A stretch of DNA of 64,000 bases, from NCBI RefSeq assembly GCF_044324875.1, contig NZ_CP172185.1; one strand, given 5' to 3'. Made by a program: the position numbers and the translations under genes. The notes beneath the pieces are model-generated. The model searched no databases. It was given only the letters and a program-made list of their open reading frames with translations, and was not told the DNA's origin. Of the stretch, positions 33,548 through 64,000 are shown piece by piece. Every line of letters begins with the position of its first letter. The first letter of the stretch is position 1. The stretch is from Escherichia coli (lineage in GTDB: Bacteria; Pseudomonadota; Gammaproteobacteria; Enterobacterales; Enterobacteriaceae).

Positions 33548-33796
33548 GGGTATTGCCGGATGCGCTGCATCCGGCAATCGGTGCCAAATGCCGGATGCAA
33601 CGCTGGCGCGTTTTATCCGGCCTACAATGAGCGCAACATACTGATCTATATGGTTTTATATGCCGGATGCAACGCTGGCGCGTTTTATCCGGCCTACAAT
33701 GAGAACAACATATTGATTTATATGGTTTTGTAGGCCGGATAAGGCGTTCACGCCGCATCCGGCGACAGGAGCCAAATGCCGGATGCAACGCTGGTT
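33548..33796. repeat. REP/BIME cluster with tandemly repeated units
   Basis: Palindrome ttgccggatgcgctgcatccggcaa, then repeated gccaaatgccggatgcaacgctggcgcgttttatccggcctacaatgag units and taggccggataaggcgttcacgccgcatccggc. Confidence 0.75.
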
Positions 33797-55654: not shown

Positions 55655-56941
55655 TTACCCCACTTTCTTATGGGGCATACATGGGACACTTTCAGATAGT
55701 CTTTTGTTAAGGAGTTCTATCTGTTCGTGATTGTTGTCTTTCATCCATGCTCCGTAAACATTGAATACCATTTGTGCGTTTGTGTGGCCCATCTGGCTTG
55801 CGATAAAACTAGGATTAGCTCCAGCGGCAAGTGACCAGCATGCATAAGTATGCCTGGATTGGTACGATTTTCTGTGTCTCAGACCTGCGCGTTTTAAGAT
55901 ACTTGTCCATGACTCCCTGATGGAGTCAACCTTATAGTGCGGTCCGGAAAACTGCCGCTGTTTTATTACCTGAGGACTAAAAACAAAAGTGCATTTATGC
56001 ACAGTACTTCTCCCATATTCCCTCTGCTTTACCTCTACAGAATGTTGCTTTCCAAGCATGGTCATTTCCGCCTGACTTTTAAGAGCATCAATAGCTGGTT
56101 GAACCAGATGAATTGTCCTTCCGGTGCCAGCATCGGTTTTTGGTGGAGTGAATTCGCCAAGTTTTGTATAATTCCTACGGATGGTTATAGTCCTTGCTTT
56201 AAGGTCTATATCTTCCCATGCCAGCGATACCAACTCCCCGTGACGAATACCCGTGTATACAGCGAGAATCCACAGGTTTTTTGTTTGTTGATGACGGCAA
56301 GCCTCAATAAAACGAATAAATTCGTCACGGGTGAGAGGATCTGGTTTTACCTTGGACTTTTTTAAGGGAGCCAGACCGTTAAATGGGTTTCCTGAGGTAT
56401 AACCATTATCTGTTGCAAATTGAAACATTCCAGCTATGGTTGTCATATAGTAGTTTACCGTGACCACTGAGCGCCCTTTTATGGAAGAAGTCTTTCCATT
56501 AGAAAGCTTTTGGTAACCGGTCAACAAATCTCTCCTTACGAAAAGTAAATCCTCTTTTGTTATGGATGAAACCAGTTTTTTTTCACCTAACATTGGTAAC
56601 ATGTTTTTAATTACTGACTGGTAACGGTTAAGTGCATTCGCACAAATCTCAATTTTCTTAAGGTCCAACCATTTTTCCGAAAGTGCCTTAACGGTTATCT
56701 CTCTTTTTCCCAGACCAAAGTGTTTCAGGTTAGGGGAATTAGGGAACTGCGCGGCGTAGTCGAAACTCCCCATTCTGATTGCAAAACAAACGGAAGTGCG
56801 AAGTTCACCTGCGATCTTCCGGTTTTTGGCGGTGTCAGGAACACCGAGGTTTTCTCTGACACGTTTGCCATTATAGTGAAACCATATACGGAGTGATCCT
56901 CCATGGTTTTCAACGCCTGTCGGGTATGATACGTTACTCAT
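55655..56941 (-). CDS. int: Phage tyrosine integrase
   Basis: 428 aa; conserved boxes TGIRHGELVSL and HRKSYQSRHTYACW ... VYGAW; SD gggagg; 3' end faces the att junction. Confidence 0.88.
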   Translation of the reverse strand: MSNVSYPTGVENHGGSLRIWFHYNGKRVRENLGVPDTAKNRKIAGELRTSVCFAIRMGSFDYAAQFPNSPNLKHFGLGKREITVKALSEKWLDLKKIEICANALNRYQSVIKNMLPMLGEKKLVSSITKEDLLFVRRDLLTGYQKLSNGKTSSIKGRSVVTVNYYMTTIAGMFQFATDNGYTSGNPFNGLAPLKKSKVKPDPLTRDEFIRFIEACRHQQTKNLWILAVYTGIRHGELVSLAWEDIDLKARTITIRRNYTKLGEFTPPKTDAGTGRTIHLVQPAIDALKSQAEMTMLGKQHSVEVKQREYGRSTVHKCTFVFSPQVIKQRQFSGPHYKVDSIRESWTSILKRAGLRHRKSYQSRHTYACWSLAAGANPSFIASQMGHTNAQMVFNVYGAWMKDNNHEQIELLNKRLSESVPCMPHKKVG

Positions 56942-61950: not shown

Positions 61951-62316
61951 TTATTGCGCTAATTCTTTTTCGGCAGCAGATTTTGCATATTCACATGCAA
62001 AATTCAGAATTTCGCTGCCAAGTGTTTTTGTTTCGTGATTACTGGACATATGTAATACCTGTGTTGCATGCAATAAATGATAAACATTTACCGCAAATGA
62101 GTCCGGCTCCAGACAAATGCCTTCATAATCATCTTGTTGTGAGGTTGTTTCTGTCATTGCTCCTGAAGTGCATGCGAGCCTGTTTTTGACAATTCTCTTT
62201 CCTCTAATCACTATATCGGCAACATCTATTGCCTTTACAACCTCCGGGAGAAGTTCCGGGTTTGTATAATCAAAGTCATCAACATGGAGAACAGTTATGT
62301 TTTCGAACTTTTTCAT
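61951..62316 (-). CDS. Hypothetical phage protein (121 aa)
   Basis: Track ORF with SD gaggaag upstream. Confidence 0.5.
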   Translation of the reverse strand: MKKFENITVLHVDDFDYTNPELLPEVVKAIDVADIVIRGKRIVKNRLACTSGAMTETTSQQDDYEGICLEPDSFAVNVYHLLHATQVLHMSSNHETKTLGSEILNFACEYAKSAAEKELAQ

Positions 62317-62444
62317 GGCTTCCTCAGCTGACTTATATGTTCTGCTATATAGCGAGTCTCAGAAGTGTTTTCATATTGAGACTGTTTCCGCAATGATTGA
62401 TAAAAATGTTCGCATGTACCTTGAGGGGCGAAGCGGCGATTATG

Positions 62445-62903
62445 TCACCATTGGTATTGGTTCTTCCGTAGAAGAGCTTCGCGAGATAAGGAGCAAACTT
62501 GTTGAGATGCGTCATGGTGTTGCTGCTCCTCACTTTTTGGTTGCTCCGGAGGAGTAACCTCGCCAGTTAACAGCCACATCGGATCACAGCCAAGAACATT
62601 AGCCAGAGGGATAATCTGGCTTGCCAGAGGCTCCCTCTTGCCACTTTCCCACTGGATGATAATTTCTTCATCGAGATTGAGCAGCCTGGCGAGTTCGGCG
62701 GTTGTTAAGCCGCAGGCTTCGCGTTGGGTGTCAATAGAGCGATATTTTTTGTTTCCAGAAGGTAACAGAACACGTTTTATCTGTTGGATTTTTTCTATTG
62801 CAACTTCAATGAGTATGTTGCGGTTTCTTTCTGATGCAGACTCCATGCTTTCATGAAGTAGTGATTCTGCTTGTTCGATAAGAATCAGTTGTAAAGAAGA
62901 CAT
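62445..62903 (-). CDS. HTH (XRE/Cro-type) domain protein immediately downstream of cI
   Basis: 152 aa; central segment LTTAELARLLNLDEEIIIQWESGKREPLASQIIPLANVLGCDPMWLLTG is a typical XRE helix-turn-helix; SD gagg. Confidence 0.6.
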   Translation of the reverse strand: MSSLQLILIEQAESLLHESMESASERNRNILIEVAIEKIQQIKRVLLPSGNKKYRSIDTQREACGLTTAELARLLNLDEEIIIQWESGKREPLASQIIPLANVLGCDPMWLLTGEVTPPEQPKSEEQQHHDASQQVCSLSREALLRKNQYQW

Positions 62904-62911
62904 AAGAAAAC

Positions 62912-62946
62912 CTCGTAACCAACATTTCGAAATCTAGGTTACGAGT
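62912..62946. promoter_or_regulatory. Palindrome between cI and the downstream HTH gene; candidate operator or terminator
   Basis: ctcgtaacc-N17-ggttacgag (9-bp arms); spacer contains gaaatctaggtt, which recurs in the cI-cro intergenic region. Confidence 0.4.
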
Positions 62947-62988
62947 GAGTAATGTAGGTGTCAAGTGTAATTGATAATTTTTTGTTGA

Positions 62989-63648
62989 TTAAATTTGCAT
63001 ACGCATCTCAACGACAACACCAAGAATTTCACAATCGCCATTGATAGGGATCAGTGGATAGCGTGGGTTTAGTGGTTTTAAGAAACATTGTCCTGCGTCT
63101 TCAATGTACTGTTTGAGGGTTGCTTCACCGGAATTTTTGAGTCTAGCGACAACATATTTTCCTGAAAAAACTTCTTTGTCAGGGTTTACAAGAATGTTCA
63201 TGCCTTCAAAGATTGAGAACTCCCCATTCTGTGACGTCATTGAGTCACCTTTTACCTCCAGCCAGAATCCGTTATCTCCTGCATATATATCGCTACCGAT
63301 CCAATCTTCTGGATAAGGTATGTAATCTTCGCAGTTCCAAGGGCCGGCGCTCACCCATGTTAATTTTGGGTATCTGTAACGCGTTGGAGAAGCTGGTTTG
63401 GGGTTTCGAACGTTTTGAATACTATCTGTAGGTGAAGGTTCGCTACCATCAAGGAGCCATTTAGGTGAGCATTTTAATGCATCTGCGATCCTGAATAGGT
63501 TTGACGATCTTGTGTCTTGTGAGTCTCCTAACTCTATTTTGCTGATTGTTACACGTGAGACACCCGTCAATTTTGCCAGGTCATCTTGTGACATGCCTAG
63601 CTGAACTCTACGCATTAACAATCTCTGTCCAAAACTATCGTGTTCCAT
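62989..63648 (-). CDS. cI: CI-type phage repressor (HTH plus LexA-like S24 peptidase domain)
   Basis: 219 aa; N-terminal HTH MSQDDLAKLTGVSRVTISKIELG; C-terminal domain with GDSM serine motif and downstream lysine. Confidence 0.8.
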   Translation of the reverse strand: MEHDSFGQRLLMRRVQLGMSQDDLAKLTGVSRVTISKIELGDSQDTRSSNLFRIADALKCSPKWLLDGSEPSPTDSIQNVRNPKPASPTRYRYPKLTWVSAGPWNCEDYIPYPEDWIGSDIYAGDNGFWLEVKGDSMTSQNGEFSIFEGMNILVNPDKEVFSGKYVVARLKNSGEATLKQYIEDAGQCFLKPLNPRYPLIPINGDCEILGVVVEMRMQI

Positions 63649-63661
63649 CTTTTCTCTCCGT

Positions 63662-63746
63662 TGTCGAAATGATTTTTTCGAAACAAATATATCAAAAAAT
63701 ATTGAAATCTAGGTTTCGCAAAACTAAGATTGTTCGAAACAAACGT
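63662..63746. promoter_or_regulatory. Divergent cI/cro promoter-operator region with repeated TTCGAAAC-type sites
   Basis: tgtcgaaat, ttttcgaaacaaa, gaaatctaggtttcgcaaaac, tgttcgaaacaaacg between the divergent starts. Confidence 0.5.
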
Positions 63747-63758
63747 GTCGAGGTCGAT

Positions 63759-63968
63759 ATGGATTTGTATGAAATTCTAAAAAACATATTTGGTTCGAAT
63801 GTTGAGATCGGTCGCCATTTTCCCCGAAAGGGAAGGGCTAGAACTGGACAGGCTGTAGGAAAGTGGAAAAAACAAGGGGTACCGGAGGATGTAGCGATTC
63901 TTTGCCATCTGGATCCCGCAATTCCTTATCAGCATCCGCCTCTCACGAACGGTAGTAATGGCGTATGA
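63759..63968 (+). CDS. cro: Cro-like small DNA-binding regulator
   Basis: 69 aa MDLYEILKNIFGSNVEIGRHFPRKGRARTGQAVGKWKK...; divergent from cI, SD gagg; start chosen at internal ATG of a longer track ORF. Confidence 0.55.
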   Translation: MDLYEILKNIFGSNVEIGRHFPRKGRARTGQAVGKWKKQGVPEDVAILCHLDPAIPYQHPPLTNGSNGV

Positions 63969-64000
63969 AATCTCTCCGGAGGGCTGTATGTCCCAGAGTT

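Follow-up and report, generated by a model that had tools for sequence, protein, structure and literature searches.

A family of predicted 18-bp operators at the leftward and rightward early promoters of a lambdoid prophage in Escherichia

Results

Genes and features of the prophage left arm

The stretch of DNA analysed in this study (the window) is 64 kb of an Escherichia chromosome. Its last ~8.4 kb (~55.6–64 kb) belong to a lambdoid prophage, of which they form the left arm, and the adjacent yehX/osmF/bglX region shares 97.8% identity with E. coli. The genes of this arm and the regulatory features described below are listed in Table 1; the leftward (PL) and cI promoter candidates were read from the sequence.

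The CI repressor matched phrog_4 (E = 1.6e-55), and partial matches to LexA, UmuD, and DicA were also obtained. Its C-terminal domain was aligned with lambda repressor 3bdn (E = 7e-27), and the results showed that the Ala-Gly cleavage site and the Ser and Lys residues were in register (VSAGPW/VQAGMF, GDSM/GNSM, and TLKQY/TFKKL). The N-terminal domain matched P22 c2 (E = 8e-8) and 434 repressor or Cro (E = 1e-5 to 3e-7). Homologues of the small gene at the cro position were present at the same position in all relatives. Its product gave no Pfam or PDB match, and its AlphaFold model (pLDDT 64, low confidence) gave no Foldseek match.

Table 1 Genes and predicted regulatory features of the prophage left arm
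Feature	Position	Strand	Description
Integrase	55655–56941	−	
Several phiP27-like genes	between integrase and 152-aa gene	−	
152-aa protein gene	62445–62903	−	first gene of the leftward operon; N-terminal module ~1–50, XRE-type HTH ~57–115
34-bp palindrome	62912–62945		OL-b plus OL-a; arms CTCGTAACCAACATTTC and GAAATCTAGGTTACGAG, 15/17 complementary (88%)
OL-b	62913–62930		predicted 18-bp operator TCGTAACCAACATTTCGA; abuts OL-a; over likely transcript start and leader of leftward operon
OL-a	62927–62944		predicted 18-bp operator TCGAAATCTAGGTTACGA; contains 12-mer copy 1 (62929–62940); covers PL −10
PL candidate	62936–62964	−	−35 TTGACA (62964–62959), 17-nt spacer, −10 TAACCT (62941–62936)
cI repressor gene	62989–63648	−	219 aa; P22 c2/434-like HTH and lambda-CI-like S24 autocleavage/oligomerisation domain
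OR-a	63664–63681		candidate site TCGAAATGATTTTTTCGA; just downstream of candidate cI promoter; 0 mismatches to TCGAAA-N6-TTTCGA
OR-a'	63678–63695		doubtful site TCGAAACAAATATATCAA; 14 bp from OR-a; matrix score 15.7; right half coincides with the extended −10 of the cI promoter candidate
cI promoter candidate (PRM-like)	63686–63694	−	extended −10 TGATATATT
OR-b	63702–63719		predicted operator TTGAAATCTAGGTTTCGC; contains 12-mer copy 2 (63704–63715); overlaps PR −35 and spacer
PR candidate	63702–63730	+	TTGAAA-17-TAAGAT; the only promoter-like site called by the scanner in 62300–64000
OR-c	63734–63751		predicted operator TCGAAACAAACGTGTCGA; over PR start region; matrix score 16.6
cro-position gene	63759–63968	+	69 aa; first rightward gene, divergent from cI; phrog_4749, a family without assigned function

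The repeated 12-mer is part of a family of 18-bp sites

The 12-mer GAAATCTAGGTT occurred exactly twice in the window, both times on the + strand. Copy 1 was found, as in the preliminary description, within the palindrome upstream of the 152-aa HTH gene; it lies in the right arm of this palindrome, which is 9 nt upstream of the ATG of that gene. Copy 2 does lie inside the cI–cro intergenic region (63649–63758), but the position originally assigned to it, 63700–63711, is 4 nt too low, and a span that ends at 63711 truncates the copy. Each copy had also been thought to adjoin a TTCGAAA-type half-site. This is the case for copy 1, where TTTC and GAAA meet across the palindrome centre, but not for copy 2, whose nearest exact TTCGAAA sequences are 21 nt upstream (63677) and 18 nt downstream (63733) and whose flanks are degenerate half-sites, TTGAAA..TTTCGC.

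The full consensus obtained from relatives is a perfect 18-bp palindrome, TCGAAACCTAGGTTTCGA, in which C2, G3, A5, A6, and their mirror positions are the most informative. Instead of a 12-mer accompanied by a separate half-site, the unit is an 18-bp site with a 14-bp core, and each of the two regions contains several such sites rather than one. When TCGAAA-N6-TTTCGA was searched with up to 2 mismatches, 7 matches were found in 64 kb compared with 3.7 expected, and 6 of the 7 fell in the two regions, starting at 62913, 62927, 63664, 63678, 63702, and 63734. With TCGAAACCTAGGTTTCGA and up to 4 mismatches, all four matches in 64 kb belonged to OL or OR (0.43 expected), and the best of them were the two sites that contain the 12-mer, with 2 and 3 mismatches, respectively.

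A scoring matrix was then constructed from 32 sites of relatives only (CI 66–79% identical), with the window sites left out. The six top positions in the 64-kb window were, in order of rank, 62927, 62913, 63702, 63734, 63678, and 63664. In comparison with 50 random 64-kb sequences, the two best window scores were above the maximum and the third was equal to it; because the relatives' sites were chosen by homology to the window sites and the regions have common ancestry, this matrix test is only partly independent. The search was also carried through 50 kb, most of one prophage, of the E. coli 04-00955 Stx2b prophage, where the six best matches were again the OL and OR positions and the next score, 11.4, was at noise level.

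Both sites that contain the 12-mer are near consensus and are therefore identical over 12 nt. They deviate from the consensus only where they double as a promoter hexamer (TTGAAA, the PR −35, and TAACCT, the PL −10), so that the stretch between is identical. These results suggest that each 12-mer is likely to be the core of an 18-bp operator, that the two operators concerned are the strongest of the set at PL and PR, and we predict that this set is bound by CI.

The leftward operator cluster and promoter

OL-a (2 mismatches to the consensus palindrome) had a matrix score of 25.2, the best in the window and higher than every random 64-kb maximum, and its half-site columns were 0.95 conserved in 10 relatives. 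The abutting OL-b had the second score in the window (21.25), with half-sites 0.94 and a centre 0.68 conserved. The centres of these two sites are 14 bp apart, and the central TCGA (4 bp) is common to both. The dyad of the palindrome that they form together was kept in relatives at 84% of cells.

The PL candidate was missed by the consensus promoter scanner because its −10 matches only 3 of 6 positions. Nevertheless, TTGAC and TAAyCT at exactly 17 nt were present in 10/10 relatives, and the column identity was 0.93 in the −35 compared with 0.67 in the spacer. A third site, CCGAAACTTTTATTACAA, immediately precedes the leftward −35 in most relatives but has been lost in the window lineage. In the Proteus loci, 1.4–2.2 kb separate cI from the OL cluster and leftward promoter downstream of it; this interval holds two inserted genes and a separate hairpin that, read by eye, resembles a terminator and has a T-run. 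OL-b is degenerate in these loci. Since the Proteus OL cluster stays with the promoter, it is the promoter to which the sites belong, not the 3' end of cI.

The OR region with the rightward and cI promoters

The cI–cro intergenic region contains three or four sites (63664–63751). OR-b (3 mismatches to the 18-bp palindrome) had the third matrix score in the window, 19.0, and its half-sites and centre were 0.87 and 0.82 conserved, respectively. Both hexamers of the PR candidate that it overlaps were conserved in relatives. In OR-c, the half-sites were 0.83 and the centre 0.53 conserved.

On the cI side, the pattern TGnTAnAnT was kept in 11/11 aligned relatives with a column identity of 0.95, and one of them has the perfect TGATATAAT. 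The extended −10 TGATATATT is likely to be the cI promoter. In OR-a, the half near this promoter (63676–63681) was 0.89 conserved and the half near cI (63664–63669) was variable; OR-a is likely a weak, autoregulatory site. The 14-bp offset of OL-a and OL-b recurs at OR-a and OR-a'. The conservation of OR-a' is explained by the overlapping promoter, which makes its status uncertain, and we regard its function as an operator as doubtful.

Conservation of half-sites and promoter elements among relatives

The relatives were found through viral contigs and a protein collection. They comprise E. coli prophages at 89% nucleotide identity (L001), viral contigs with CI 96%, 77%, 76%, and 55% identical, Salmonella, Cedecea, and metagenome contigs with CI 66–79% identical, and Proteus with CI 54% identical. 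A scan of representative genomes with CI returned one locus only (Proteus, 54% identity), and a search of viral contigs for the exact OL double-site pattern gave no contigs beyond the relatives already found.

Half-sites and promoter hexamers were kept in the 10 relatives (Escherichia, Salmonella, Cedecea, and Proteus), and the bases between them drifted. In alignments of 10–11 relatives, the identity was 0.83–0.95 in half-site columns, 0.53–0.82 in site centres, and 0.55–0.68 in promoter spacers and inter-site DNA. The exact 12-mer was kept only in the window lineage, and what the relatives keep is the half-sites. The two best sites retain a CCTAG(G/A) centre; in more distant relatives the centre differs, as in L006 with TCGTAATCTTTATTTCGA and CCGAAACCTATATTACAA. 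At centre position 12, OL-a and OR-b were compared by eye for co-variation within each phage; the pairs were (A,A), (G,G), and mixed, and the independent lineages were too few for the pattern to be meaningful.

The motif follows the recognition helix of CI

The HTH segment GVSRVTISKIELG of CI was identical in 10/10 relatives that bear the motif. In phiP27, PhiR49_2, and L010, which have another cI or another helix, the motif was absent and other words, their own, were shared between OL and OR. These results support the view that the motif tracks the recognition helix of CI and not the HTH of the 152-aa gene. In every relative, however, the motif is accompanied by the N-terminal module of this gene as well, and CI is therefore not singled out by co-occurrence alone.

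Three other explanations of the shared 12-mer were weighed. A repeated 12-mer by itself proves nothing, because ~5.8 exact pairs at most 1 kb apart are expected per random 64 kb of the same composition; the window contains 76 such pairs, mostly REP-type repeats, so that the match could be a coincidence between two AT-rich intergenic regions with no common function. However, 0 of 300 shuffles of the two intergenic regions gave a shared 12-mer (the longest shared word averaged 7.2), and CTAG, the centre of both copies, is ~15-fold under-represented in the window (16 occurrences compared with ~250 expected from base composition). Both copies are, in addition, the top members of a site family that is limited to the two regions and conserved across genera. 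These three points place the match above chance, and L022 (CI 69% identical) has a different 12-mer, AACCTAGGTTTC, common to the same two positions; a coincidence is hardly credible. The protein that reads the palindrome could instead be the 152-aa protein, which has an XRE-type HTH and whose own promoter and leader are overlapped by the palindrome; the palindrome would then be its autoregulatory operator and the cI–cro copy a site of cross-regulation, and the presence of its N-terminal module alongside the motif in all relatives fits this idea. Nevertheless, the HTH part is ~92% nucleotide-identical, with a near-identical helix-turn-helix, in L10 of both phiP27 and PhiR49_2, whose upstream and cI–cro regions lack the motif (best matrix scores 7–10), whereas the operator-bearing L006, L018, and L022 have unrelated HTH domains on this gene, and L021 and L023 keep the operators with a gene for a 60–64 aa protein without an HTH. 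With nearly the same HTH found without the motif, and the operators kept with an unrelated HTH or none, the 152-aa HTH was rejected as the operator binder, and regulation of this kind is improbable.

The palindrome might also act as RNA: transcripts that read through from cI would contain a hairpin that stops transcription or covers the ribosome-binding site of the 152-aa gene, in which case the 12-mer match would be incidental. For the − strand RNA, the folding energy is −14.7 kcal/mol (z = −2.9), and GGUUUUCUU follows in the window; a GAGG Shine-Dalgarno sequence lies within the 3' arm, and the arms co-vary in relatives, with 5 pairs changed on both sides and some changes of the G-U type. 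However, symmetric sites for a protein should show such covariation of the dyad just as much, and the columns in which it is weak are exactly those of the non-contacted centre. L006, L007, L018, L019, L021, and L023 lack the U-run, and the terminator scanner gave no call at the palindrome. Transcripts from the leftward promoter would begin near the palindrome centre and carry one arm only; the Proteus loci, as described above, have a degenerate OL-b and a cluster remote from cI behind a separate hairpin; and the other four sites are left unexplained. An RNA hairpin as the main role of the palindrome is thus very improbable. A Rho-independent terminator was rejected, given a U-run in the window lineage only, no scanner call, and the Proteus placement. 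The palindrome may still have a minor function as RNA when transcription reads through, for instance by covering the GAGG ribosome-binding site.

The preferred explanation is one family of operators, predicted for CI, at both promoters. The preliminary description had proposed that one repressor coordinates a leftward and a rightward operator, analogous to OL/OR, and this proposal is supported by sequence and comparison: one site family at both promoters, conserved hexamers, and co-occurrence with the CI helix. The arrangement appears to be the ordinary OL/OR design in a lambda-like prophage. By analogy, the cro-position protein probably also binds the operators, and the sites may be read by CI, by the Cro-position protein, or by both.

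The N-terminal module of the 152-aa protein

The first leftward gene encodes, at its N-terminal end, an acidic module of ~50 aa, with the consensus ..IEQ.E.L..E.LES.S......LLEIAIEK..., and it had no match in PDB, Pfam, or PHROG. Inheritance of the module is coupled to that of the CI helix and the operators in every relative examined (Escherichia, Salmonella, Cedecea, and Proteus). In some relatives, the module is fused to an unrelated HTH, and in others, it is a free-standing protein of 60–64 aa; phages with another cI have different sequence in its place. The module could be a third immunity component, such as an anti-repressor or co-regulator of CI or Cro, perhaps at the abutting operator pair, although we consider this rather unlikely. 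If it were true, the switch would be a three-protein device, not a plain lambda-type one.

Discussion

In this study, the sites, their restriction to two regions, their conservation, the promoter elements, and the association with the CI helix were observed directly, and from the sequences we infer binding, repression, and induction. In a lysogen, CI dimers would fill two clusters, OR and OL. Occupancy of OR-b over the PR −35 and of OR-c over the PR start would turn the rightward early operon off, and occupancy of OL-a over the PL −10 and of OL-b over the start and leader would turn off the leftward early operon, from the 152-aa gene to xis and int. OR-a, downstream of the cI promoter, could serve for negative autoregulation or for shut-off by Cro. 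With 14 bp between centres and 4 bp in common, two dimers may not fit on the OL pair, so that the lambda occupancy model may not transfer. As the CI C-terminal domain is of the lambda type and its Ala-Gly site and Ser/Lys dyad align with those of lambda repressor, SOS-induced self-cleavage of CI should free both promoters, which would be released together.

This immunity type was present in 7 of 5,426 complete E. coli genomes. Among deposited phages in the collection searched, none had this CI at more than 51% identity, and the best was phiP27 at 50.5%. In the open literature searched, none of the exact sequence words appeared in connection with phage operators and the hits to them were unrelated, a search for phiP27 operators gave nothing relevant, and no published description of this immunity type was found. 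The Stx2b prophage of E. coli 04-00955 has the same immunity region at ~89% nucleotide identity and the same operators; the sites are therefore predicted control points for the induction of a toxin phage. The operator sites also predict which prophages are homoimmune. For this lambdoid type, our results define the operators by sequence and the arrangement of the promoters, as well as a likely immunity specificity. This is a new immunity specificity of a well-known switch, and its value lies in the annotation and the comparative footprint, not in a new mechanism.

Comparison with known systems

The OL/OR regions of lambda with CI and Cro are an established textbook system. The window resembles lambda in its divergent cI and cro-position genes with a multi-operator region over PR and the cI promoter, in a second operator cluster on the leftward early promoter with partly palindromic sites of one family in both clusters, and in a homologous CI C-terminal domain with the cleavage site and catalytic residues aligned (E = 7e-27, as above). 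There are also clear differences. The window sites are 18 bp long and of another sequence, whereas lambda sites are 17 bp. OL follows cI directly, ~775 bp from OR and without rex, whereas the gap in lambda is ~2.3 kb. The OL pair abuts at a 14-bp centre spacing as a 34-bp palindrome, compared with ~20–24 bp between lambda sites. The candidate cI promoter has an extended −10, and the centre of OR-b lies near −31 of it rather than −42, which is not the activation geometry of lambda OR2. The first leftward gene encodes an HTH protein, whereas in lambda it is N, and the N-terminal DNA-binding domain of CI is of the P22 c2/434 type, not the lambda type.

For P22 c2 and 434, complexes of the N-terminal domain have been solved (for example, 2r1j, 3jxb, and 1per). 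In the 434 and P22 systems, indirect reading of the central bases leads one to expect conserved outer half-sites and a more variable centre, and the P22 operator is 18 bp long. The window agrees with these systems in its matching N-terminal domain, in an operator length of 18 bp as in P22, and in outer half-sites that are more conserved than the centre, but it differs in the recognition helix (SRVTISKIE) and the operator sequence.

phiP27 (Stx2e, NC_003356) has the same gene order, with the HTH gene L10, cI L11, and the divergent small gene L12, and the left arm of the window is 95% identical to it up to a junction inside the L10-like gene, near 62730. It also has its own 11-mer, CCAAAGTATCA, common to its two regulatory regions. 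In contrast, its CI is only 50.5% identical, its recognition helix is another one, its operator sequence differs, and the motif is absent. The window prophage and phiP27 are predicted to be heteroimmune.

N-terminal module and mosaic junction

The 152-aa protein, encoded by the first leftward gene, carries an N-terminal module of ~50 aa (MSSLQLILIEQAESLLHESMESASERNRNILIEVAIEKIQQIK) ahead of its XRE-type helix-turn-helix (HTH). This module was kept in all relatives that share the CI helix and the operators. In some relatives it was fused to one or two unrelated HTH domains, and in two relatives it was a free-standing protein of 60–64 aa. Other sequence was found in its place in phiP27 (an Stx2e phage) and PhiR49_2, phages that have another cI and do not contain the operator motif. 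Searches of Pfam, PHROG, and PDB with the N-terminal module returned no match. The module may be immunity specific.

A mosaic junction was observed at window position ~62730, within the 152-aa gene. Left of this position, the window was 92–95% identical to phiP27 and PhiR49_2; right of it, the 5′ part of the 152-aa gene, OL, cI, OR, and cro showed no similarity to either phage. Since the similarity ends at ~62730, the boundary of the immunity cassette is intragenic and lies between two protein modules.

Leftward operators, relatives, and repeats

A third predicted leftward operator, CCGAAACTTTTATTACAA, was found in relatives directly upstream of the −35 element of the leftward promoter. The window has lost this predicted site, as have its close relatives in E. 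coli.

The immunity region was present in only 7 of the 5,426 complete E. coli genomes, and its nearest annotated relative was an Stx2b-converting prophage (L026), with ~89% nucleotide identity and the same operators. The exact CI protein was not found in a collection of 5.8 billion proteins, in which the nearest cluster was 95% identical. For the host flank, the best match among the 5,426 E. coli genomes reached only 97.8% identity. Most of the close-range 12-mer repeats of the window came from one cluster of direct repeats, which resemble REP-type repeats in intergenic DNA of the host chromosome.

Coordinates of the features (L-numbers, loci of relatives)
Feature	Location	Strand	Remark
N-terminal module	window 62754-62903	-	residues ~1-50 of 152-aa protein
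N-terminal module in relatives	L021 1116-1298; L023 1109-1303; L012 5613-6071
Third leftward operator sites	L018 3659-3676; L019 3659; L020 3656; L021 1033; L023 1026; L022 1409; L012 5527
Equivalent position in window	~62966-62988
CI protein	window 62989-63648	-
86-aa ORF	window 62297-62557	+	opposite strand to 152-aa gene
Direct-repeat cluster GCCGGATGCAACGCTG...	window 33583-33790
L026	NZ_CP035498.1 1781000-1830999		E. coli 04-00955
stx2b	L026 18654-19889
Inserted gene pair	L012 4458-5458; equivalent region of L009		Proteus loci

Comparison with phiP27 and lambda

An 86-aa ORF runs across the 128 nt that separate the 121-aa gene from the 152-aa gene and extends into the 3′ end of the latter; in phiP27, a small plus-strand gene, L09, is annotated at a similar place. 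In the Proteus loci, cI is separated from the leftward promoter and operators by two inserted genes (176 and 154 aa), a pair that occupies the position of rexAB in lambda.
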